The notes beneath the pieces were generated by a model. It saw only the letters and a list, made by a program, of their open reading frames with translations. It did not search any database and had not been told where the DNA came from. Below, one piece after another: positions 94 to 13,780 of a stretch of 16,519 nt of DNA. The DNA comes from a virus (taxonomy: Duplodnaviria; Heunggongvirae; Uroviricota; Caudoviricetes). Each line of letters opens with the position of its first letter. The first letter of the stretch is position 1. Location: IMG/VR virus record IMGVR_UViG_3300028298_000002, one strand, 5' to 3'. The position numbers were made by a program, and so were the translations under genes.

Positions 94-1218
94 ATGAATG
101 AAGTAAAAATTAAAGACATAGACTTTAAATTAATGCCAAACGATCAAGAATTTTATTTTTGTATCGACCTATCTGGCGGAAAAAGAGTTCATCGCGGAGG
201 GCATATAAAAGCTCATCCCAATAATTTCATATCAGTATTGCTTTGCGATGCTCAAACGCCAAAAGGCAAAGTTATATCCATTGACGAAGTAGAAACTTGT
301 GAATCTTGCGAAAAAGTCTTTCCAGCTGAAGTGATGGAACTAGCACATCCAGACGATACCGCTTTGTTTTGTCCGAATTGTAAAAAGGAAGGACTGATAG
401 AAATGTATAAATTTTTCTGTTCTCTTTTTGCTACACAATTTGCCCGATATCAGAATTTGATTGAAGAGGGAATGACTGAAGAAGAAATTTCGAAAGTGTT
501 TGCAGCTAATAAGTCGGAAATCGGAATTGAAGAATTTAAGCTTTTTGTGAAAAATACTTACGCGGGGATGACTGTTTTTACTATAAATACTGTACTTGAT
601 AATTTTTTAAAGACCGAACCTACTGAAAACGTAACCCCAAATCCAGAAATAGAAATCAAATTTGGCACTCCCGAAAAGGAATTAGAACCAAACACGCTTA
701 CATTCAGTAATGCAAAACAGCCAGTATTAAAATTTTGTCCCAATGGTGATATTTTTGTTAATGGAAAATTAACCGAAAATGATAAGGAAGTTGTTGAAGG
801 AATACGAAAAATTCTAGGTAACGAAAAGTCTGAAGAAGAAAATCGTCCTATGCCTGGCACAAGATGGCTTCTAAGAACCTTATTCGCTGAACTGATAACT
901 GGACACGAAGATTTTCCTATTGATAAGTGGATTGAAGAAAATTGCGTTCCATTGCAACCGAACGATGTAAAATTAGTGCAGCCAGTAGCATACGTTTTTG
1001 AAGGTATAATTTATTCTAAAAAAGGTTTGGATGGAAAGACTTTTTCAGAAGAAAATAAACCACAGGCTATTTATCCATCACCTTTTCTTGATGTAATGTT
1101 GAAGCTGTGGAAAGAGCTGCGCCAACGAATGCATAGGTATCCTAATCCTCACGATATGATTCCTTACAACCGAATTGATAATCTTATAAAAATCCTTGAA
1201 AATGCCGACAGTAATTAG
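94..1218 (+). CDS. Hypothetical phage protein (374 aa) with two CxxC motifs
   Basis: Long ORF with A-rich upstream sequence; CESC and CPNC motifs; no family recognised. Confidence 0.8.
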   Translation: MNEVKIKDIDFKLMPNDQEFYFCIDLSGGKRVHRGGHIKAHPNNFISVLLCDAQTPKGKVISIDEVETCESCEKVFPAEVMELAHPDDTALFCPNCKKEGLIEMYKFFCSLFATQFARYQNLIEEGMTEEEISKVFAANKSEIGIEEFKLFVKNTYAGMTVFTINTVLDNFLKTEPTENVTPNPEIEIKFGTPEKELEPNTLTFSNAKQPVLKFCPNGDIFVNGKLTENDKEVVEGIRKILGNEKSEEENRPMPGTRWLLRTLFAELITGHEDFPIDKWIEENCVPLQPNDVKLVQPVAYVFEGIIYSKKGLDGKTFSEENKPQAIYPSPFLDVMLKLWKELRQRMHRYPNPHDMIPYNRIDNLIKILENADSN

Positions 1219-3842: not shown

Positions 3843-4169
3843 ATGAAATACCAACTATGCCCAAAATGTAATGGCGATGGACACTTAGGAAGATTTAATT
3901 CTCCTAACACTTCTAGCAACGCTTGTCCACAATGTGATGTTTGCTTTGGAGCAAAAACATTGCTTGTTCGCGATGATCAGCCAATCGTTACTGACGAACA
4001 AATATTACGTGTGCTGCAAAATCATCAACGTCCTGGATCCGAAGGAATGTTTATCGTAGCTGAAGATTTTTCAAGCATCATTCCGCGAATGAGAAAATTG
4101 TTTCAAGAACAAGATAACACAAAAGCCGAACTGGAAAAATTCTTCAACTGGTACAAAAAATCGCCATAG
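3843..4169 (+). CDS. Hypothetical protein with an N-terminal CxxCxGxG Zn finger
   Basis: CPKCNGDG...CDVCFGAK motifs. Confidence 0.75.
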   Translation: MKYQLCPKCNGDGHLGRFNSPNTSSNACPQCDVCFGAKTLLVRDDQPIVTDEQILRVLQNHQRPGSEGMFIVAEDFSSIIPRMRKLFQEQDNTKAELEKFFNWYKKSP

Positions 4170-4177
4170 CCACGAAT

Positions 4178-4333
4178 ATGGCGATTAACCTGGCTTGTGA
4201 TAAAGAAAAGGAAAACAAATACATTGAATTTCTTCAAAAGCACAATCTAAAATCTGGTCCATCACCCGAATTTCTTGCATCACTCAACAAAGAACAACGG
4301 GTTGAACTTGCTAAGATTTTTCAACGGAAATAG
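4178..4333 (+). CDS. Small hypothetical protein (51 aa), absent from the ORF track
   Basis: MAINLACDKEKENKYIEFLQKHNLKSGPSPEFLASLNKEQRVELAKIFQRK*; its TAG abuts the 3' end of the convergent tRNA-Leu. Confidence 0.6.
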   Translation: MAINLACDKEKENKYIEFLQKHNLKSGPSPEFLASLNKEQRVELAKIFQRK

Positions 4334-4415
4334 TACAAATGGAGAGACTTGAACTCTCACGCCTTTCGGCACCAGATCCTAAGTCTGGCGTGTCTGCCAA
4401 TTCCACCACATTCGC
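4334..4415 (-). tRNA. tRNA-Leu(UAG), cassette 1
   Basis: GCGAATG/CATTTGT acceptor, CCAGA-CTTAGGA-TCTGG anticodon arm, long variable arm, TTCAAGT T loop; CCA not encoded. Confidence 0.95.
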
Positions 4416-4420
4416 ATAAG

Positions 4421-4506
4421 TGTCGGTAGCAGGAATCGAACCTGCACGGGCATTACTGCCCATAGCATTTTAAGTGCTACGTGTCTTCCAATTCCACCAT
4501 ACCGGC
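4421..4506 (-). tRNA. tRNA-Leu(UAA), cassette 1
   Basis: TAGCA-CTTAAAA-TGCTA anticodon arm, long variable arm; C2.A71 mismatch. Confidence 0.93.
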
Positions 4507-4511
4507 ATTTG

Positions 4512-4584
4512 TGGGACTACAAGGACTTGAACCTCGATTAGCGGTGTTACAGACCGAATACTTACCAATTAGTATGATAATCCC
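4512..4584 (-). tRNA. tRNA-Tyr(GUA) with a short variable loop, cassette 1
   Basis: GGGATTA/TAGTCCC acceptor, loop CTGTAAC, 4-nt variable loop, CGAGG-TTCAAGT-CCTTG T arm. Confidence 0.88.
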
Positions 4585-4589
4585 ATTAG

Positions 4590-4676
4590 AGGAAGATGAG
4601 CGATTCGAACGCTCGGATCCTTGTGAGATCGATAGTTTTCAAGACTATTCCAATAATCCATCTCTGGCAATCTTCC
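4590..4676 (-). tRNA. tRNA-Ser(UGA), cassette 1
   Basis: GGAAGAT/ATCTTCC acceptor, ATAGT-CTTGAAA-ACTAT anticodon arm, long variable arm. Confidence 0.93.
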
Positions 4677-4688
4677 TTATTTATTCAG

Positions 4689-4775
4689 CGGAAACGGCAG
4701 GATTCAAACCTGCGAAACCTTTTACAGTTTGGCTCGTTAGCAGTGAGCTGATATAATTCTCTCATCCACGTTTCC
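4689..4775 (-). tRNA. tRNA-Ser(GCU), cassette 1
   Basis: GGAAACG/CGTTTCC acceptor, loop CTGCTAA, long variable arm; T loop TTTGAAT (U56) with D-loop A19. Confidence 0.92.
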
Positions 4776-4785
4776 ATATTTAACG

Positions 4786-4861
4786 TGTGAAGTGTGGGCT
4801 ACGATCCCACGATCTCCTGTACCACAAACAGGCGCTTTCGACCAACTAAGCTAACTTCACC
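4786..4861 (-). tRNA. tRNA-His(GUG) including G-1, cassette 1
   Basis: CCTGT-TTGTGGT-ACAGG anticodon arm; encoded G-1 opposite A73; atypical T loop ATCGTAG. Confidence 0.88.
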
Positions 4862-4875
4862 ATGTAATAAAAAAC

Positions 4876-4908
4876 AAAAAACCCCGAACTTTTTATGGTT
4901 GAGGGCTT
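4876..4908 (-). terminator. Intrinsic terminator (attenuator) ahead of tRNA cassette 1
   Basis: AAGCCCTCAAC-cataaaaa-GTTCGGGGTT followed by TTTTGTTTTTT, about 15 nt before tRNA-His. Confidence 0.8.
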
Positions 4909-4933
4909 CTTGCGTGAGTAGTATCTTAATACA

Positions 4934-5002
4934 CTACAATAGAAATTTCCCCGAACCCAAAGGATACAGCGACAAATAACTATGTAATGATAAATTTTTC
5001 AT
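4934..5002 (-). CDS. Leader peptide 1 (22 aa) MKNLSLHSYLSLYPLGSGKFLL
   Basis: ATG lies 4 nt after the -7 promoter element; codons 4-13 are all Leu/Ser/His/Tyr, the amino acids of the downstream cassette. Confidence 0.85.
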   Translation of the reverse strand: MKNLSLHSYLSLYPLGSGKFLL

Positions 5003-5006
5003 AAGG

Positions 5007-5036
5007 CAAATGTAATTATTATTTTTGATTTAGCAA
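5007..5036 (-). promoter_or_regulatory. Bacteroidota sigma70 promoter P1
   Basis: TTG-N19-TACATTTG matches the -33/-7 (TAnnTTTG) consensus. Confidence 0.85.
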
Positions 5037-5263
5037 GTTTTTGTTATACGTAATGTAAAAAAAGGCACATATTATTTTAACATTTCTTTATTTATAGGCG
5101 TTTCGGTCATGTTACATAGAAAAACGATTTGTCCATTGGTCTATGAAAATATTATGCAATATTTATGAAATGAAAAAGAGGTTGTCAAGCATTGCGATGT
5201 TTTTGATCACAATTATTATTCAATATTTTGTGTTTTATTTTATTTACTATTTGTGTTTTTGAG

Positions 5264-5335
5264 TGTTTTCAACCCGAATCGAACGAGTATCTTCGAGTCC
5301 GTAGCCCGAAATTTTATCCTTTAAACTATGAAAAC
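5264..5335 (-). tRNA. tRNA-Arg(ACG), cassette 2
   Basis: GTTTTCA/TGAAAAC acceptor, TCGGG-CTACGGA-CTCGA anticodon arm, A20 identity base. Confidence 0.88.
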
Positions 5336-5341
5336 ATTGTG

Positions 5342-5413
5342 ATGGATAGAGCAGAGTCGAACTGCTATCTAGGGGTTAGAAAACCCTTGTTCTGTCCATT
5401 GAACTACAATCCA
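5342..5413 (-). tRNA. tRNA-Arg(UCU), cassette 2
   Basis: AGGG-TTTTCTAAC-CCCT centres on TCT; D loop GGA gives A20; U1-A72. Confidence 0.85.
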
Positions 5414-5417
5414 GTAG

Positions 5418-5491
5418 TGCAACCGCTGGAATTCGAATCCAGATAGCCCATATTAAAAGTATGGTGTATTACCAATTGATACTACGGTTGC
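5418..5491 (-). tRNA. tRNA-Lys(UUU), cassette 2
   Basis: GCAACCG/CGGTTGC acceptor, CCATA-CTTTTAA-TATGG anticodon arm. Confidence 0.92.
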
Positions 5492-5580
5492 ATAAATAAT
5501 TCATCTGCTTCTTCGCTTTCGCAAAAAAGAAAATGATTTTTTTATGTACCTAGTAACTGACATTTAATTTATTTTTTTAG

Positions 5581-5652
5581 TAACCCAAGCTTGAATCGGA
5601 CAAGCGACATCAACTATGTAAAAGTTGCGTTCTACCACTGAACTATTGGGTT
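5581..5652 (-). tRNA. tRNA-Val(UAC), cassette 2
   Basis: AACCCAA/TTGGGTT acceptor, CAACT-TTTACAT-AGTTG anticodon arm; T loop TCCGATT (C55). Confidence 0.88.
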
Positions 5653-5657
5653 ATATG

Positions 5658-5729
5658 TGGAGCGTAAGAATTTCGAAATCTTATAATCTTCGATGCAAAC
5701 GAAGTGCCTTGCCTTTCAGCCAACGCCCC
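5658..5729 (-). tRNA. tRNA-Ala(UGC), cassette 2
   Basis: GGGGCGT/ACGCTCC acceptor with the G3.U70 Ala determinant; CTTCG-TTTGCAT-CGAAG anticodon arm; U53.U61 mismatch. Confidence 0.88.
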
Positions 5730-5741
5730 AGTTTTTTCTAG

Positions 5742-5814
5742 TTGGTCCTAACCGAATCGAACGGATATATCCTATGTTATGAGCATAGTTCTTTACCAAT
5801 TAAGATAAGGACCA
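5742..5814 (-). tRNA. tRNA with CAU anticodon, probably Ile2 (lysidine) or elongator Met, cassette 2
   Basis: TGGTCCT/AGGACCA acceptor, CTATG-CTCATAA-CATAG anticodon arm; no initiator features. The Ile2 call is an inference. Confidence 0.8.
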
Positions 5815-5817
5815 GTG

Positions 5818-5879
5818 AGACCAGAAACATATTCCAGCTTTTGCAGAGCTGTGCCAAAGCCAATATTAGCTATCTGATC
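5818..5879 (-). tRNA. tRNA-Cys(GCA) lacking the T arm (62 nt; functional or pseudo)
   Basis: GATCAGA/TCTGGTC 7-bp acceptor, U73, intact D arm, CAGCT-CTGCAAA-AGCTG anticodon arm; only 9 nt (GAATATGTT) replace the variable loop plus T arm. Confidence 0.7.
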
Positions 5880-5887
5880 GATCATTG

Positions 5888-5959
5888 AGCAAAATATCGG
5901 TCTCGAACCGCATCCTCAGATTGGAAATCTGACGCTTTACCAATTAAGCTATATCTTGC
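5888..5959 (-). tRNA. tRNA-Gly(UCC) with an apparent 8/4 acceptor/T-stem fold, cassette 2
   Basis: GCAAGATA/TATTTTGC 8 bp, TCAGA-TTTCCAA-TCTGA anticodon arm, GCGG-TTCGAGA-CCGA T arm, U73. Confidence 0.85.
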
Positions 5960-5966
5960 AAACTTG

Positions 5967-6039
5967 TACTCCGTAGGGGATTCAAACCCCTGTTCTTCTC
6001 AGTGAAAGTGAGACGACTTAATCGCTTGTCCAACGGAGC
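5967..6039 (-). tRNA. tRNA-Glu(UUC), cassette 2
   Basis: GCTCCGT/ACGGAGT acceptor, TCTCA-CTTTCAC-TGAGA anticodon arm; D loop CGA (A19) with T loop TTTGAAT (U56). Confidence 0.9.
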
Positions 6040-6130
6040 ATTGTTCCGCTGGTTCGTCTGATTTTGTGTTTAATGTTTTCATCACTTGTTTTTTGTTTCT
6101 TTTTTGTATAAATTGCTTGTTTTTTTTCGC

Positions 6131-6195
6131 TTAGTGGCGGGAGTGCAACTCATTTCGCCTAACGGCTAATCTACTCTGCACTTTGCCACCACTAA
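6131..6195 (-). ncRNA. Unidentified tRNA-sized hairpin RNA within cassette 2
   Basis: TTAGTGGTGG/CCGCCACTAA (10 bp, with a G.U that pairs only on the minus strand), AGTGCA/TGCACT, and apical GCC-GTTA-GGC. Confidence 0.4.
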
Positions 6196-6264
6196 TATTT
6201 TAAGCAACAACGGACTTTTCCTACATTTTTACAAACAAGGCTTTGACCTATTGTTGTTGCTTTG

Positions 6265-6337
6265 CACACCGACCTCGATTTGAACGAAGATTATCAGGGT
6301 TGGAATCTGATCGCATTGCCATTTAACTCATCGGTGC
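6265..6337 (-). tRNA. tRNA-Trp(CCA), cassette 2
   Basis: GCACCGA/TCGGTGT acceptor, loop TTCCAAC, CTTCG-TTCAAAT-CGAGG T arm; weak D stem. Confidence 0.82.
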
Positions 6338-6347
6338 GTATTTTAAG

Positions 6348-6424
6348 CGGTTTATTTCGGATTCGAACCGAACGAATATCTCGCGTGACAGGCGAGCGAA
6401 CACAGCCAAGCATTCCCATAAACC
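6348..6424 (-). tRNA. tRNA-Asp(GUC), cassette 2
   Basis: GGTTTAT/ATAAACC acceptor, G73, CTCGC-CTGTCAC-GCGAG anticodon arm; G at position 8 and a 7-nt variable region. Confidence 0.87.
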
Positions 6425-6513
6425 AAAATAGAGGAAAGCCTTAAACCTCATTTTTGCAAGTTGGATCTTGCCAATCTAACGCCCTTGTTTCAGGGCCGAA
6501 CTTTTTATTGCTG

Positions 6514-6588
6514 CTCCCATTGCTAGACTTGAACTAGCGACCTTCAGATTAACAATCTGCTGCTACTAACCAGCTGAGCTAAACGGGA
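6514..6588 (-). tRNA. tRNA-Asn(GUU), cassette 2
   Basis: TCCCGTT/AATGGGA acceptor, G73, loop TTGTTAA, canonical D and T arms. Confidence 0.93.
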
Positions 6589-6598
6589 TTGTTGATTG

Positions 6599-6671
6599 TT
6601 GTTTCGGGGTGAATCGAACACCCGACATTTATCTTATCAGGATACTATTCTGCCAACTGAATTACGAAACA
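6599..6671 (-). tRNA. tRNA-Ile(GAU), cassette 2
   Basis: TGTTTCG/CGAAACA acceptor, TATC-CTGATAA-GATA anticodon arm, GGGTG-TTCGATT-CACCC T arm. Confidence 0.9.
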
Positions 6672-6885
6672 ATAAAAAAAGAGTCAGCTATTTTGCCTTC
6701 ATAAGCTGATTTCCCCAGTGGCTGCCAGGTATTCTAAAAGTGCATTTACGGGTTAATTAAACCTTCATTCCTAAAAATTTCGTTATGTTTTCTTTCGTAC
6801 TAAAATCAACATTTAACTAATTTTTTTCTAACGCTGTTGTCGTTTCAAACAGGACTTTCAGTAACTCTTTATTCAAAGAACGTAA

Positions 6886-6960
6886 TGGTTGCGAGGACCG
6901 GAATCGAACCGGTGTGGGCAACAGCTTATGAGACTGGCGGGAACCAACATCCTCCTCGCA
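6886..6960 (-). tRNA. tRNA-Met(CAU) with an atypical D arm and encoded CCA, cassette 2
   Basis: TGCGAGG/CCTCGCA-A-CCA, loop CTCATAA, ACCGG-TTCGATT-CCGGT T arm; G2-C71/C3-G70 are Met-like; no U8. It is the only tRNA in the array with encoded CCA. Confidence 0.8.
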
Positions 6961-6973
6961 ATATTTTTTTTTG

Positions 6974-7056
6974 AGCCTAAAGAGAGATTTGAACTCCCGT
7001 GTGGTTTCCCATCCAGATTACAAATCTGGCGCAATCGGCCGCTATGCGATTTAGGC
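6974..7056 (-). tRNA. tRNA-Thr(UGU) with a long variable arm, cassette 2
   Basis: GCCTAAA/TTTAGGC acceptor (C2-G71), CCAGA-TTTGTAA-TCTGG anticodon arm, 14-nt variable arm with TGG-GAAA-CCA. Confidence 0.88.
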
Positions 7057-7061
7057 AATGT

Positions 7062-7150
7062 TTCGAGAAATGGCTGGGCTATTTTGTTTCATTGTCCCAA
7101 CCAATCATTCGCCACCAGGATTTTCCTACCCGATAGCAACCTATCTCAAA
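7062..7150 (-). ncRNA. Unidentified structured RNA of about 90 nt at the head of cassette 2
   Basis: Closing stem TTTGAGA/TCTCGAA encloses two hairpins (TTGCTATCGGG/CCTGGTGGCGA and TGGTTGGG/CCCAGCCA). Confidence 0.4.
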
Positions 7151-7185
7151 GTGTTAAATAAAAAAAAGAACTTAATTTTAGTCAT

Positions 7186-7216
7186 AAAAAAACCCCGACT
7201 TATTTGGTCGAGGCTT
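7186..7216 (-). terminator. Intrinsic terminator (attenuator) ahead of tRNA cassette 2
   Basis: AAGCCTCGAC-caaataa-GTCGGGGTT followed by TTTT. Confidence 0.85.
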
Positions 7217-7238
7217 CGTAGGTTTAATGTAGATGTTT

Positions 7239-7358
7239 TTAACATCGAACACAATCGTCCAAAGCCTCATTAGTCTTGTCTCCGCCCTCAATACGTACAG
7301 CGACAGACCAATTGGTTCTCGTTGCACACGCCATTATAATATTTTTTACTTGTTTCAT
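7239..7358 (-). CDS. Leader peptide 2 (39 aa) MKQVKNIIMACATRTNWSVAVRIEGGDKTNEALDDCVRC
   Basis: A-rich context before the ATG; contains all 13 amino acids of cassette 2 and only three residues outside that set (Q3, S18, L33). Confidence 0.85.
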   Translation of the reverse strand: MKQVKNIIMACATRTNWSVAVRIEGGDKTNEALDDCVRC

Positions 7359-7452
7359 TGAATGCGTTAATTTTTTTTAGTTAAAAAAGGCTGTCCAAAT
7401 TTTTATCCTACGTTTCCGCTGTCCAGAATATTATTCTGCCTTTTTGACTTTG

Positions 7453-7485
7453 CAAATATAGAATGGTTTTTTTTATATTTCCAAA
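7453..7485 (-). promoter_or_regulatory. Bacteroidota sigma70 promoter P2
   Basis: TTTG-N21-TATATTTG. Confidence 0.8.
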
Positions 7486-7597
7486 TTTATTTTTTGTTTT
7501 TCATTTAACTAATTTAAAATCAGTTAAATAAAATTCGGCACTTTCGTAAAATATACAACAAAATGGGAATTTTATTACAATAAAAATCTAAAAATAG

Positions 7598-7668
7598 TTT
7601 CAGGAGAAAGATTCGAACTTCCGTTTGAGAGACCAAAACTCCCCGTCCTGCCGCTAGACGATCCTGAA
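7598..7668 (-). tRNA. tRNA-Gln(UUG), cassette 3
   Basis: TTCAGGA/TCCTGAA acceptor (U1-A72), GGGAG-TTTTGGT-CTCTC anticodon arm. Confidence 0.9.
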
Positions 7669-7679
7669 TTGTGTGTGTG

Positions 7680-7751
7680 TGTGATCGACAAGATTTGAAC
7701 TTGTGTCCCCGCCTCTTCAGGGCGATGCTAGGCCAACTCAGCTACGACCAC
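7680..7751 (-). tRNA. tRNA-Phe(GAA), cassette 3
   Basis: GTGGTCG/CGATCAC acceptor, TCGCC-CTGAAGA-GGCGG anticodon arm. Confidence 0.9.
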
Positions 7752-7761
7752 ATTAATTTTG

Positions 7762-7837
7762 TAGCGATGGCCAGATTTCAACTGGCGCTTCCCTGGTCCC
7801 AAACCAGGTCGGAAAAAGCAGACTTCCGTACATCGCT
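7762..7837 (-). tRNA. tRNA-Pro(UGG), cassette 3
   Basis: AGCGATG/CATCGCT acceptor, CCTGG-TTTGGGA-CCAGG anticodon arm; D loop TGCT (C19) with T loop TTGAAAT (G56). Confidence 0.88.
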
Positions 7838-7846
7838 ATGTAAAAC

Positions 7847-7877
7847 AAAAAACCCCAACATTTCTGCTGAGGTTTTT
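7847..7877 (-). terminator. Intrinsic terminator (attenuator) ahead of tRNA cassette 3
   Basis: AAAAACCTCAGC-agaaat-GTTGGGGTTTTT followed by TGTTTT, about 10 nt before tRNA-Pro. Confidence 0.85.
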
Positions 7878-7897
7878 CGTAGTAGTGTTTTAAATTT

Positions 7898-7966
7898 TTA
7901 ACATAACGATTCCAGAGCAAGAAGTTGCTTAAAAAACTGCGGCTGAAATTGTGTTTTGTTTTTCAT
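7898..7966 (-). CDS. Leader peptide 3 (22 aa) MKNKTQFQPQFFKQLLALESLC
   Basis: ATG lies 8 nt after the -7 element; codons 6-12 CAA TTT CAG CCG CAG TTT TTT are all Gln/Phe/Pro, the amino acids of the downstream cassette. Confidence 0.85.
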   Translation of the reverse strand: MKNKTQFQPQFFKQLLALESLC

Positions 7967-7974
7967 TTGGACTG

Positions 7975-8005
7975 CAATGATAGTGCAATTTTTTGAATCT
8001 GCAAA
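7975..8005 (-). promoter_or_regulatory. Bacteroidota sigma70 promoter P3
   Basis: TTTG-N19-TATCATTG (one mismatch to TAnnTTTG). Confidence 0.72.
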
Positions 8006-8014
8006 TTTATTTTG

Positions 8015-8049
8015 AAAAAAAAAGCAAAAGCCCAATAAAAATTGGGCTT
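8015..8049 (-). terminator. Intrinsic terminator after the VRR-NUC gene, insulating the tRNA array
   Basis: AAGCCCAAT-tttt-ATTGGGCTT followed by TTGCTTTTTTT. Confidence 0.75.
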
Positions 8050-8109
8050 CGCAAGTGAAATTAATTTTAGATTGGTCTCCTACGTTTATTTCGGTGCTAA
8101 GATATGAAT

Positions 8110-8475
8110 TTATTTTCCAATATCAAATCCTGAATGGATCTCGTTAATAATTTCTTGGAATTGTTCGAAGGACCGGCAGATATAAACTTTAATTCCATTT
8201 GCTTCCCAGATTGCGTGGATCTTTTTTTGTTCAGGTGAAACTACACCTGTTTCTGTTTTCATTTCTATGCCGATAGGAATAACTGAACAAACACCTGGCT
8301 TGTATAAATACAGAATGTCGCAGATTCCTGAAACGCAGCCCGTTGCTTTGAGCTTAGTCGCTTCAATCTTATTTCGGTATCCACCATTCGGAACGGAAAA
8401 TAAAAGTCCCCTACGTTCCGGAAAGGTATTGTGAAACCATTGATAGCATTTTGCCTGAATCTGATCTTCGCTCAT
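8110..8475 (-). CDS. VRR-NUC domain (PD-(D/E)xK) nuclease
   Basis: SEDQIQ...LLFSVPNGG.R...G..SGICD...IEMKT..G..SPEQ pattern. Confidence 0.88.
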   Translation of the reverse strand: MSEDQIQAKCYQWFHNTFPERRGLLFSVPNGGYRNKIEATKLKATGCVSGICDILYLYKPGVCSVIPIGIEMKTETGVVSPEQKKIHAIWEANGIKVYICRSFEQFQEIINEIHSGFDIGK

Positions 8476-8559
8476 TCCTCAAAAGTAGGGAAAATTATCC
8501 GAAGCAAAACTCTAAAGTTTAAAGATTAATCAAAGCCTTTATTTTCAATACTTTTAGAA

Positions 8560-9230
8560 CTTTGATACTATGCTTACTTAGTGTATTGGGTAATTCATTG
8601 GATTGGAAAATTCAGTACAAGACTTCAAAAAGGAGTTTGATACCGTACAGTCTTACTTAGACTAGGTTAGTACCAATTTCACACGGTTTTTTAATGGTTT
8701 CTATTATTAAGCCCTATAAACCTTTTTATTTTTTTTACAAAAAAGTTCAATTATTCAATATGATACTATGTATTGTATGTTACTACTCATAATCAGATGT
8801 TTAACTACTATGTATTGTATAGTACTATGTCAATTTAGAATAAATAAATATTTATAATTAAAATAAAATATACGCGTTAATATGTTTTTCTATATTCTTT
8901 TAGGCAGAATCTTTAAATCCTTAGTCTAAGTAATGATGTATAGTATTAAACTCAAAAAGGTGGTTTTTTTAATAAAAATCAATCAATCAATAAATCATTA
9001 CTTAGACTAGTGTTTCCATAGTACTGCCTTTTTAATTTGAGTTTGATACTCAATTTTTTAAATTGCTAAATACTTAGTTGCACTAAGCTAGTATAGTACA
9101 GGAATCAATATAGTCTATGTTAATATTGATATATATAATATTTTGTACTACTAAAATGTTTGTACGATAGAGTTTTAAATGTTTAGTACTATTTTTTTTA
9201 GTACAATATTTTTTTGTACATTTTTAAATC
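8560..9230. repeat. AT-rich non-coding region with dispersed direct and inverted repeats (origin-like)
   Basis: TTACTTAGACTAG at 8653 and 8998; 15-bp perfect inverted repeat at 8922-8936/8995-9009; TACTATGTATTGTAT at 8764 and 8806; many AGTAC/GTACT motifs; no ORF of 60 aa or more in the track. Confidence 0.6.
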
Positions 9231-12567: not shown

Positions 12568-13722
12568 CTAAAGGCAAGTGGCTTCGGAAGTCATCACTCC
12601 AACTAATGTTGGCAGTTCGTTCCGATTTTTAAGTCTGCGTTCCACAGACAAATAGTTTTTTAAAGCAAAATTTTTAATATTTATGGCAGCATTTTTATCA
12701 CGATTAAGTACAGAACCACAACCACAAGTCCATTCACGGTCTTTGAGTGCTAGTTCTTTATTTATCGTTCCACAATCAGAACAAGTTTTTGAAGAGGGTT
12801 CAAATCGACCTATCTTCAAAATGTTCTTGCCATACCATTCTGCTTTGTATTCTAACATTGTAACAAAGGAAGCCCAGCTGACATCACCGATTGCTCCAGC
12901 GAGTTTATGGTTAGCCATCATTCCTTTGATATTTAAGTCTTCAATCGCGATACTATCGTGGTTCTTGATTAGTATGGTTGAAGTTTTATTTAAAAAATCT
13001 TTACGTTGGTTTGCTACCTTTTCGTGTAGTGTAGCCAACCTATGTTTTGTTCGCTTACCTTTGTTCTTTGAATATTTACGTTACACGTATTTTAATTTGC
13101 TTTGTGCTTTACGTAAAAATTTAGGGTTGTCAAACTCGGCACCATCAGACGTTACAAGAAATGTTTTAATTCCGAGATCAATGCCAATGGTTGTTTTTTC
13201 TTTGACTGGTTTTTTAGTTGGTATGGCAACATTGGTTTCACAAAGTATAGAAACAAAATACTTTCCAGTTGGTGTTCTGCTAATGGTAGCTTGTCTTATG
13301 TCGCCTTTGATTGGACGATGTAAGTTGATTGAAATTCCTTTTTTAAATTTTGGAATGATTAGTTTTCCGTTTTCAATTTCAATACTTTGTGGAACACTGA
13401 AAGATTGCCTTGCGGATTTCTTCTTGAAATTAGGAAAATCATTTTGGCCTTTAAAAAATGCTGTAAAGGATTTATCTAAATTGACGATCGCTTGTTGCAA
13501 AGATTGGCTATTAACTTCTTTCAACCAATCGCATTCGGTTTTAAGTGCTGGAAGTTGTTTAATTAAATCGAAACAACTTAGATTAACTTTATTACCAGCA
13601 TACGCCATTTGCTTTGTTTCTAATGCAAGATTATACACAAAGCGACACGAACCAATATGTTTATTGATTAGCACCTTTTGTGCCTTTGTTGGCGATATCC
13701 GATATTTAAAAGCCTTTAACAT
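12568..13722 (-). pseudogene. tnpB: TnpB RNA-guided nuclease interrupted by one in-frame TAA
   Basis: MLKAFKYRI HTH, GIDLG (RuvC-I), IAIEDL (RuvC-II), CSDCG..CGCG Zn finger, NRDKNAAINI (RuvC-III). The two track ORFs share a frame (1155 nt) and are separated by KYV*RKYSK at 13081-13083. Confidence 0.9.
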
Positions 13723-13727
13723 TAATA

Positions 13728-13757
13728 CAAATATACAAAATTATACAAAAAAACAAA
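13728..13757 (-). promoter_or_regulatory. Bacteroidota-type promoter for tnpB
   Basis: TTTG-N18-TATATTTG, 5 nt before the ATG. Confidence 0.65.
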
Positions 13758-13780
13758 TTTATTTAAAATATTAAACTAAT

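Follow-up and report, generated by a model that had tools for sequence, protein, structure and literature searches.

Transcription attenuation by leader peptides is known from the trp, his, leu, and pheA leaders of enterobacteria and, in multivalent form, from the ilvGMEDA leader, which contains Ile, Leu, and Val codons, and the thr leader, which contains Thr and Ile codons. In these systems, a short promoter-proximal open reading frame (ORF) carries a run of regulatory codons, the RNA is able to form a 1:2 protector hairpin, a 2:3 antiterminator, or a 3:4 intrinsic terminator, and the position of the ribosome selects the helix. Here, we describe a locus with a similar layout in the DNA of an uncultured phage (Caudoviricetes; IMG/VR virus record IMGVR_UViG_3300028298_000002). 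The whole stretch analyzed, referred to as the window, is 16,519 nucleotides long, and the locus, a 22-codon ORF followed by a terminator-like hairpin and six tRNA genes, lies on its minus strand. Judging from the sequence and from modelled folds, we consider it likely that transcription of the tRNA genes is attenuated at this locus by ribosome-mediated (leader-peptide) control of the trp/his/ilv type.

Like the ilv and thr leaders, the phage leader would sense several amino acids at once; unlike them, it samples each of six isoacceptors individually, and the genes it would control code for tRNAs rather than biosynthetic enzymes, so that its output would act directly on the sensed quantity. 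It further differs from the enterobacterial leaders in being phage-borne, in its Bacteroidota-type promoter context, and in its predicted leaderless AUG, and it has no sequence similarity to any Rfam leader family. The pheM leader of E. coli pheST offers another parallel, since the gene attenuated there serves translation and the signal is the decoding of cognate codons, but pheM controls the aminoacyl-tRNA synthetase of one amino acid and not a set of tRNA genes. T-box riboswitches also let the supply or charging of a specific tRNA set terminator read-through via a competing antiterminator, but a T-box binds uncharged tRNA directly, with no translation involved, whereas at the phage locus an ORF with its start codon is conserved. 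We conclude that the multivalent ilv and thr leaders and the pheM leader of pheST are the closest analogues, the phage locus differing in its target, phage tRNA genes. Such genes are usually viewed as adding a fixed set of tRNAs to the host pool or as replacing those destroyed by host defences, and to our knowledge little is known about the control of their expression. A full-text search of a limited literature collection returned no published case of leader-peptide attenuation of tRNA genes. In mycobacteria, leaderless short polycysteine ORFs are reported to act as Cys-responsive attenuators (bioRxiv 10.1101/834739), their consecutive regulatory codons controlling a downstream operon, as those of the phage leader would; these ORFs belong to another phylum, respond to one amino acid (Cys), and have targets in cysteine metabolism.

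Results

A run of Leu, Ser, His, and Tyr codons precedes six cognate tRNA genes

The cassette that would be controlled (4333-4860, minus strand; ARAGORN and Rfam calls) is the last block of a tRNA gene cluster. Its first gene is tRNA-His(GTG) (4860-4785), followed by tRNA-Ser(GCT) (4775-4688; ARAGORN), tRNA-Ser(TGA) (4676-4589; ARAGORN), tRNA-Tyr(GTA) (4584-4512; Rfam RF00005 and relaxed ARAGORN), tRNA-Leu(TAA) (4506-4420; ARAGORN), and tRNA-Leu(TAG) (4415-4333; ARAGORN), all on the minus strand; with RNA anticodons, the order is His, Ser(GCU), Ser(UGA), Tyr, Leu(UAA), Leu(UAG). Upstream of the cassette, an ORF of 22 codons plus TAG (4934-5002, minus strand; ATG 5002-5000, stop codon 4936-4934) codes for the peptide MKNLSLHSYLSLYPLGSGKFLL. 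Codons 4-13 of this leader, at 4993-4964, are TTA TCA TTA CAT AGT TAT TTG TCG CTG TAT, exactly as listed in an earlier note made from the window sequence, and all of them specify Leu, Ser, His, or Tyr. By standard wobble rules, these ten codons should cover all six cassette tRNAs, as the note had also proposed.

The note had estimated the improbability of the run from uniform codon usage. We replaced this estimate with a scan of the six reading frames of the window (33,002 codon positions, with a {H,S,Y,L} frequency of 0.243), and the run still stands out. The leader run, with 10 codons, is the longest {H,S,Y,L} run in the six frames, the runner-up has 6, and the number of runs of at least 10 codons expected in the whole window is 0.02. 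Six consecutive codons read by six different cassette tRNAs occur once in the 33,002 positions (expectation 0.077); these are codons 7-12, CAT AGT TAT TTG TCG CTG (4967-4984, minus strand), with one codon for each cassette tRNA, and the codon scan and folding together place the core of the predicted stall window here. TTA, TCA, AGT, and TAT are common codons in the genes of the window.

The leader is preceded by a predicted promoter. The sequence TACATTTG (5007-5014, minus strand) fits the -7 box consensus of the Bacteroidota sigma-A factor, TAnnTTTG, and a -33-like TTG, recognized from the Bacteroidota promoter consensus (PMC7366714), is found 19 nt upstream of it (5034-5036, minus strand). 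The box is followed by CCTT and then by the ATG, which confirms the 4-nt gap reported earlier. The same -7 box consensus is given for Bacteroidota in PMC7366714, and in Flavobacterium psychrophilum the box occupies positions -12 to -5 (PMC9723704), so the transcription start is predicted to coincide with A5002 of the ATG; what had been called a nearly leaderless mRNA may thus be leaderless in the strict sense. Leaderless mRNAs are a minority, about 4-6%, in two Bacteroidota transcriptomes (PMC9723704, PMC7366714). The spacing of box, 4 nt, and ATG is the same in four of the eight homologous sequences described below (window, L030, L033, and L043), whereas leader lengths in the others range from about 4 to 45 nt.

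The terminator arm can pair with two partners

A terminator hairpin separates the leader ORF from the cassette. Its 5' arm GCCCTCAACC (4897-4906, minus strand; region 3) and 3' arm GTTCGGGGT (4881-4889, minus strand; region 4), both identified by folding and covariation, enclose the loop AUAAAAA, and a T-tract, TTTTTTGTTTTTT (4869-4881, minus strand; from sequence and fold), follows. The hairpin together with the T-tract (4906-4869) folds with -16.9 kcal/mol, including an A/U extension. Since the T-tract ends 8 nt before tRNA-His, the cassette can be reached by read-through only; a separate promoter between terminator and tRNA-His was considered and rejected, the gap being only 8 nt.

The earlier note had pointed to an exact copy of the terminator 3' arm within the leader and suggested that it competes for the 5' arm. 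Within the window, both strands included, the sequence GTTCGGGG indeed occurs just twice, at 4956-4949 and 4889-4882, and it is able to compete: GGGUUCGGGG pairs with CCCUCAACC at -11.8 kcal/mol, compared to -9.7 kcal/mol for the terminator arms. The antiterminator arm GGGTTCGGGG (4949-4958, minus strand; region 2), which spans codons 15-18, pairs in this helix with 4905-4897 and covaries with the 5' arm, which is common to terminator and antiterminator. Region 2 has a further partner, region 1 (4961-4973, minus strand), with which it forms the inner stem of a protector hairpin (duplex energy -10.5 kcal/mol; RNAalifold columns 31-42 with 47-57). The 5' strand of the outer stem of this 1:2 hairpin (4980-4989, minus strand) pairs with 4942-4932 (RNAalifold columns 14-23 with 64-74). 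In minimum free energy folds, a small hairpin over the stop codon (4918-4937, minus strand) forms inside the antiterminator helix; it is not obviously conserved beyond the window and L030.

When folded freely, the RNA forms two elements, a long hairpin, in which the codon run pairs with the rest of the ORF, and the terminator, and the region folds better than shuffled sequences (z = -2.55). A cmscan search of 4200-8200 at E <= 0.1 returned no Rfam leader (Leu, His, Thr, Trp, or Phe) and no T-box at 4869-5036; identity with a T-box or a known Rfam leader family was rejected for lack of a covariance-model match. Elsewhere in the searched region, the only leader or T-box match was to Phe_leader, below threshold, at 7942-8056 on the opposite strand.

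Modelled ribosome position switches the fold

The ribosome was modelled as an unpaired footprint placed on the leader codon by codon, with downstream footprints of 10-16 nt. In the window sequence, the terminator formed with a probability of 0.76-0.77 when there was no ribosome or when the ribosome was at the stop codon. With the A site on codons 7-11, this probability dropped to 0.01-0.08, and the 5' arm paired with GGGUUCGGGG instead. At all footprints tried, a sensitive window of five codons was located within codons 6-12. Folding of the alternative conformers, proposed earlier as a check, thus indicates that a footprint can switch the RNA between the two helices, at least in the model. The idea that the whole run of codons 4-13 acts as the sensor held in part: the run is there, but the stall positions that flip the fold cover only about codons 6-12. 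Among 300 dinucleotide shuffles of the leader, nine showed any such switch and two showed one spanning five codons.

Similar behaviour was seen with transcripts cut before the 3' arm. In all eight homologous sequences, the antiterminator formed with a probability of 0.77-1.0 when the ribosome was at or before codon 11 and 0.00 when it was at codons 15-21. The switching boundary is therefore the end of the codon run.

The codon run and the pairings are retained in related contigs

Homologues were sought among metagenomic phage contigs, using the neighbouring VRR-NUC gene and a back-translated leader pattern. Seven further homologues were found (L030, L033, L043, L044/L053, L045, L046, and L048), each with a homologous leader ORF, which brings the number of distinct sequences to eight. 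Codons 1-13 are 92-100% identical at the DNA level (mean 97%), whereas identity is 54-91% (mean ca. 67%) in the tRNA genes and 48-96% in the flanks. As protein, codons 1-13 are invariant except for Thr in place of Leu at codon 4 in L048, and the handful of differences seen in codons 5-13 leave the amino acid unchanged, each variant codon still being one that the same tRNA can read (TCA/TCG/TCT, TAT/TAC, and CTG/CTT).

Past codon 13, the peptide is variable. L048 retains the RNA motif GGTTCAGGAAAAT.TCTATTGTAG, but a change of frame gives its peptide the tail ...PKQSVQENLYCS instead of ...GSGKFLL. In the remaining genomes, changes at the third base of the Gly codon go together with changes in the 5' arm of the terminator. 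From the frame change and the Gly third-base covariation, we conclude that the 3' half of the leader is conserved as RNA rather than as protein, which argues against an ordinary small-protein gene.

All eight sequences are able to form 1:2, 2:3, and 3:4 helices of comparable strength, and the energies of the 1:2 protector duplex range from -6 to -12 kcal/mol. The arm sequences vary between genomes while complementarity is retained. In the window, the antiterminator arm, the 5' arm, and the 3' arm are GGTTCGGGG, CCCTCAACC, and GTTCGGGG; the corresponding arms are GGTTCGGGA, TCCTGAACC, and GTTCGGGA in L033, GGTTCAGGT, ACCTGAGCC, and GTTCAGGT in L046, GGTCAGGG, CCCTGAC, and GTCGGGG in L044, and GTTCGGGG, CCTCGAAC, and GTTTGGGG in L045. 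A MAFFT alignment was out of register in the terminator 5' arm, and base pairs were counted from duplex folds anchored on the conserved CCU. In the resulting table, positions -3, +1, +2, +3, and +4 of the 5' arm covary with both the antiterminator arm and the 3' arm; at position -3, C-G, U-A, and A-U pairs are present in both helices. When cognate arms were compared with arms swapped between sequences, 32 of 5040 assignments did as well for the 2:3 helix (p = 0.006) and 10 of 5040 for the 3:4 helix (p = 0.002); these p-values are rough, since the comparison ignores the kinship of the sequences. The consensus structure calculated by RNAalifold consists of the 1:2 protector hairpin and the terminator, and in the outer stem of the protector hairpin the changes are one-sided, with pairs preserved.

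Leader, terminator, and cassette occur together

The VRR-NUC gene is located directly upstream of the tRNA cluster, and its homologues at 72-77% identity in Logan assemblies led to contigs with syntenic tRNA clusters. The back-translated MKNLSLHSYLSLY pattern matched four of 241 million metagenome records, in each case directly upstream of a cassette led by tRNA-His. A looser pattern gave two in-frame matches, one in a 169-kb IMG/VR contig and one in a contig binned with a Bacteroidia metagenome-assembled genome, both before the cassette, and six out-of-frame chance matches, none of which had tRNAs downstream. Every in-frame leader match thus precedes a His-Ser-Ser-Tyr-Leu-Leu cassette. With relaxed tRNA detection, His, Ser(GCU), Ser(UGA), Tyr, Leu, and Leu genes were found wherever the contig was long enough, except that Ser(GCU) was not detected in L044.

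The genes upstream of the leader vary by contig and may be Arg tRNAs, tRNA-Cys, or protein-coding genes. In the window, the cassette with its leader and terminator (module 1) follows two other blocks of similar layout; in L045 (3290-8264), the order of the modules is 2-1-3, in L046 (2393-3125), module 1 stands alone beside protein genes, and in L031, the cluster ends at tRNA-Cys, with neither cassette nor leader present. The varied neighbours, the order in L045, and the joint absence in L031 show that leader, terminator, and cassette travel as one unit, and from their arrangement the modules appear to behave as movable units.

Other searches extended the set no further. VRR-NUC relatives at up to 52% identity in IMG/VR have no tRNA cluster; VRR-NUC homologues at up to 65% identity, where DNA was obtainable, belong to other phages without the cluster; the neighbouring genes at 3843-4169 and 94-1218, used as queries, gave no useful loci; and neither an exact tRNA-His pattern nor the strict leader pattern had a match in IMG/VR. 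Near and distant DNA searches of deposited phage genomes revealed no relative of the cluster or the leader, only generic tRNA-Leu matches.

Other modules and genomic context

The cluster contains 23 tRNA genes, all on the minus strand (4333-7837). Of these, 22 were called by ARAGORN at default settings; tRNA-Tyr(GTA) (4512-4584) was missed and was recovered by Rfam RF00005 (48.4 bits) and by relaxed ARAGORN. In the window, this tRNA is 73-74 nt long and has a short variable arm, while the Tyr tRNAs of the relatives are 81-84 nt long and have the long variable arm that is usual in bacterial tRNA-Tyr. The cluster is divided into three blocks, each located behind a short ORF starting with MK and a terminator of the form CCTC...GGGGTTTTT, and within the window this terminator motif is present at the three block starts only.

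The leaders of modules 2 and 3 are found at 7239-7358 and 7898-7966, respectively (both minus strand). The longest {P,F,Q} run in the window, QFQPQFF, is in the leader before the Pro/Phe/Gln block, and QFQPQF is conserved in five relatives. In footprint folding, module 2 showed a clear switch, with a terminator probability of 0.05-0.36 when the ribosome was placed on codons 2-24 and of 0.94-0.95 when it was on codons 28-38; for module 3, only a weak alternative pairing in the truncated transcript was observed. In the relatives, a tRNA-Cys(GCA) gene is located between the Gly and Met genes. At the window positions 5815-5886 (minus strand), no tRNA-Cys could be detected even with very relaxed thresholds, and a hairpin with a CUGCAAA loop is retained there; the module 2 leader of the window has three Cys codons. 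A short ORF at 6082-5999 (minus strand), MKT..(S/T)DEP(A/F)E.., overlaps into a tRNA-Glu gene and is found at the same place in five genomes. In two relatives, an Arg-rich mini-ORF directly precedes tRNA-Arg(TCT)/Arg(ACG): L033:7733-7795 (plus strand), coding for MKKTRNIKYSSAIRRSRRSR, and L043, reverse complement 582-647 (minus strand of the locus), coding for MKKLRNIKYSSAIRIRVRRSR. It is possible, from its sequence, that this mini-ORF is a fourth, Arg-specific leader. In the window, the Lys and Arg tRNA genes are 3 nt apart, with no Arg-rich ORF between them.

The window is uncultured lake-water phage DNA and looks like a part of a large phage; it codes for Lar, T5orf172, VRR-NUC, and ATP-dependent ligase domains, and DNA searches found no near match to it among deposited phages. 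Identical DNA is present in lake-water metagenome runs; four such runs contain the same strain only, with no differences in the attenuator region. A 363-amino-acid ORF (12683-13774, plus strand), which adjoins the ligase gene, is ca. 36% identical to proteins annotated as transposases in many unrelated phages. By this similarity, it appears to be a mobile gene within the phage, and it was discarded as a synteny anchor.

Discussion

Judged by sequence, the locus displays every hallmark of a trp/his/ilv-type leader-peptide attenuator. The attenuator proposed in the earlier note is supported by a promoter-proximal ORF, a codon run that matches the cassette, a terminator, and a competing copy of its 3' arm, all of which are kept in seven other contigs. 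The anatomy of the locus, the improbability of the codon run, the competing helices with their covariation, and the constant association with the cassette were read or computed directly. Transcription would start at or beside the AUG of the 22-codon leader and would be coupled to translation. When codons 4-13 are decoded fast, the ribosome would cover the antiterminator arm at codons 15-18 as the terminator 5' arm emerges; with the antiterminator arm covered, the terminator hairpin would form and transcription would stop just before tRNA-His. When the matching aminoacyl-tRNAs are scarce and decoding is slow, the ribosome would sit on approximately codons 6-12 and melt the 1:2 protector hairpin, which would free GGGUUCGGGG for the 5' arm. 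The terminator would then be blocked, and the six tRNA genes (His, two Ser, Tyr, and two Leu) would be transcribed. The new tRNAs would restore decoding, closing a negative feedback loop on the supply of these six tRNAs. Heavy codon demand by the phage, decay of host tRNAs, or cleavage by an anticodon nuclease may be the trigger. If the model holds, the phage probably makes these tRNAs only when ribosomes read their codons slowly.

Three other explanations have to be weighed. The ORF could simply code for a small phage protein, expressed from its own promoter and ended by its own terminator; the tRNAs would then arise from constitutive leak-through, and the peptide would resemble the cassette by a low-complexity coincidence. 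Short peptides rich in Leu, Ser, and Tyr are common, and 13 near-invariant first residues in eight genomes are what a functional peptide would show. However, conservation of the peptide ends at codon 13, L048 changes frame while retaining the RNA, and synonymous third positions covary with the terminator 5' arm. The codon run, moreover, is unique in the window and is placed exactly before its cognate cassette, and each of the other two leaders in the window likewise reflects its own cassette, as with QFQPQFF before Pro/Phe/Gln. We consider this explanation highly unlikely. A purely RNA-based function, independent of translation, such as a signal for tRNA precursor processing or stability, a protein-binding site, or a small RNA ended by the terminator, with an incidental ORF, appears very unlikely as well. 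The conservation of the 39-nt segment, greater than coding constraint alone needs, and the better-than-shuffled folding would suit such an element, but all eight sequences keep the ATG, the reading frame up to and including codon 13, and a stop codon in frame, four of them have the -7 box exactly 4 nt before the ATG, the ribosome position at which the fold switches corresponds in every one to the end of the codon run, and no Rfam family matches the site.

The remaining alternative is a translation-coupled attenuator that reports general translation capacity, responding to any slowdown of the ribosome rather than to the supply of these six tRNAs, with codons that reflect phage usage or RNA pairing. 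The switch depends solely on ribosome position, the codon run is partly constrained by the 1:2 hairpin, and TTA, TCA, AGT, and TAT are frequent in the genes of the window, all of which would fit this explanation. On the other hand, all ten codons of the sensitive stretch specify the four amino acids of the cassette, six in a row sample six tRNAs, and the codon sets of the other two modules differ from it and match their own cassettes; such a partition is not expected from general codon usage. A sensor of general capacity is thus unlikely, and we favour an attenuator that responds to the codons of its own cassette.

Several observations weigh against this interpretation. The terminator hairpin alone is modest (-7.7 kcal/mol), with a C.C mismatch in its stem, and the module 1 terminator was not flagged by a simple terminator scan of the window; the competing antiterminator helix of the window genome likewise carries a C.C mismatch. 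In L044 and L045, strong terminators with GAAA tetraloops win at equilibrium despite a stalled ribosome, so that a switch in these genomes would depend on co-transcriptional kinetics. In several homologues, the antiterminator is favoured in truncated transcripts when no ribosome is present, and the expectation that absence of translation leads to termination is therefore not robust. A ribosome senses aminoacyl-tRNA and not tRNA itself; thus, a shortage of amino acids would cause read-through too, and in that case additional tRNA would be of no help. Leader run and cassette content are both invariant across module 1 homologues, so that among them there is no case of a tRNA and its codon having been lost together. 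Finally, module 2 of L030 (leader 7370-7486, cassette 7658-9073) is missing the Met, Ala, Val, Lys, Arg, and Arg tRNAs that are present in the window and in L033, and its leader nevertheless retains Ala, Val, Lys, and Arg codons, so the match between leader and cassette is not always exact.

On balance, we lean slightly towards a broader view, in which several uncultured phage lineages run a modular homeostat of tRNA supply. Each cassette would have its own attenuator testing the codons of that cassette, and a block would be transcribed only when the host pool fails, for example, upon anticodon-nuclease defence or host tRNA decay. Module 1 would be a self-contained, mobile unit of this system, occurring alone or in varied orders. 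If the attenuator interpretation of module 1 is correct, the phage would measure decoding speed codon by codon and make the matching tRNAs as they are needed. A textbook circuit known to date from amino-acid biosynthesis and synthetase genes would then reach the tRNA genes themselves, and it would also reach a Bacteroidota setting that lacks Shine-Dalgarno sequences and is probably leaderless. The element, short and self-contained, would be a natural sensor of the supply of individual tRNA isoacceptors.

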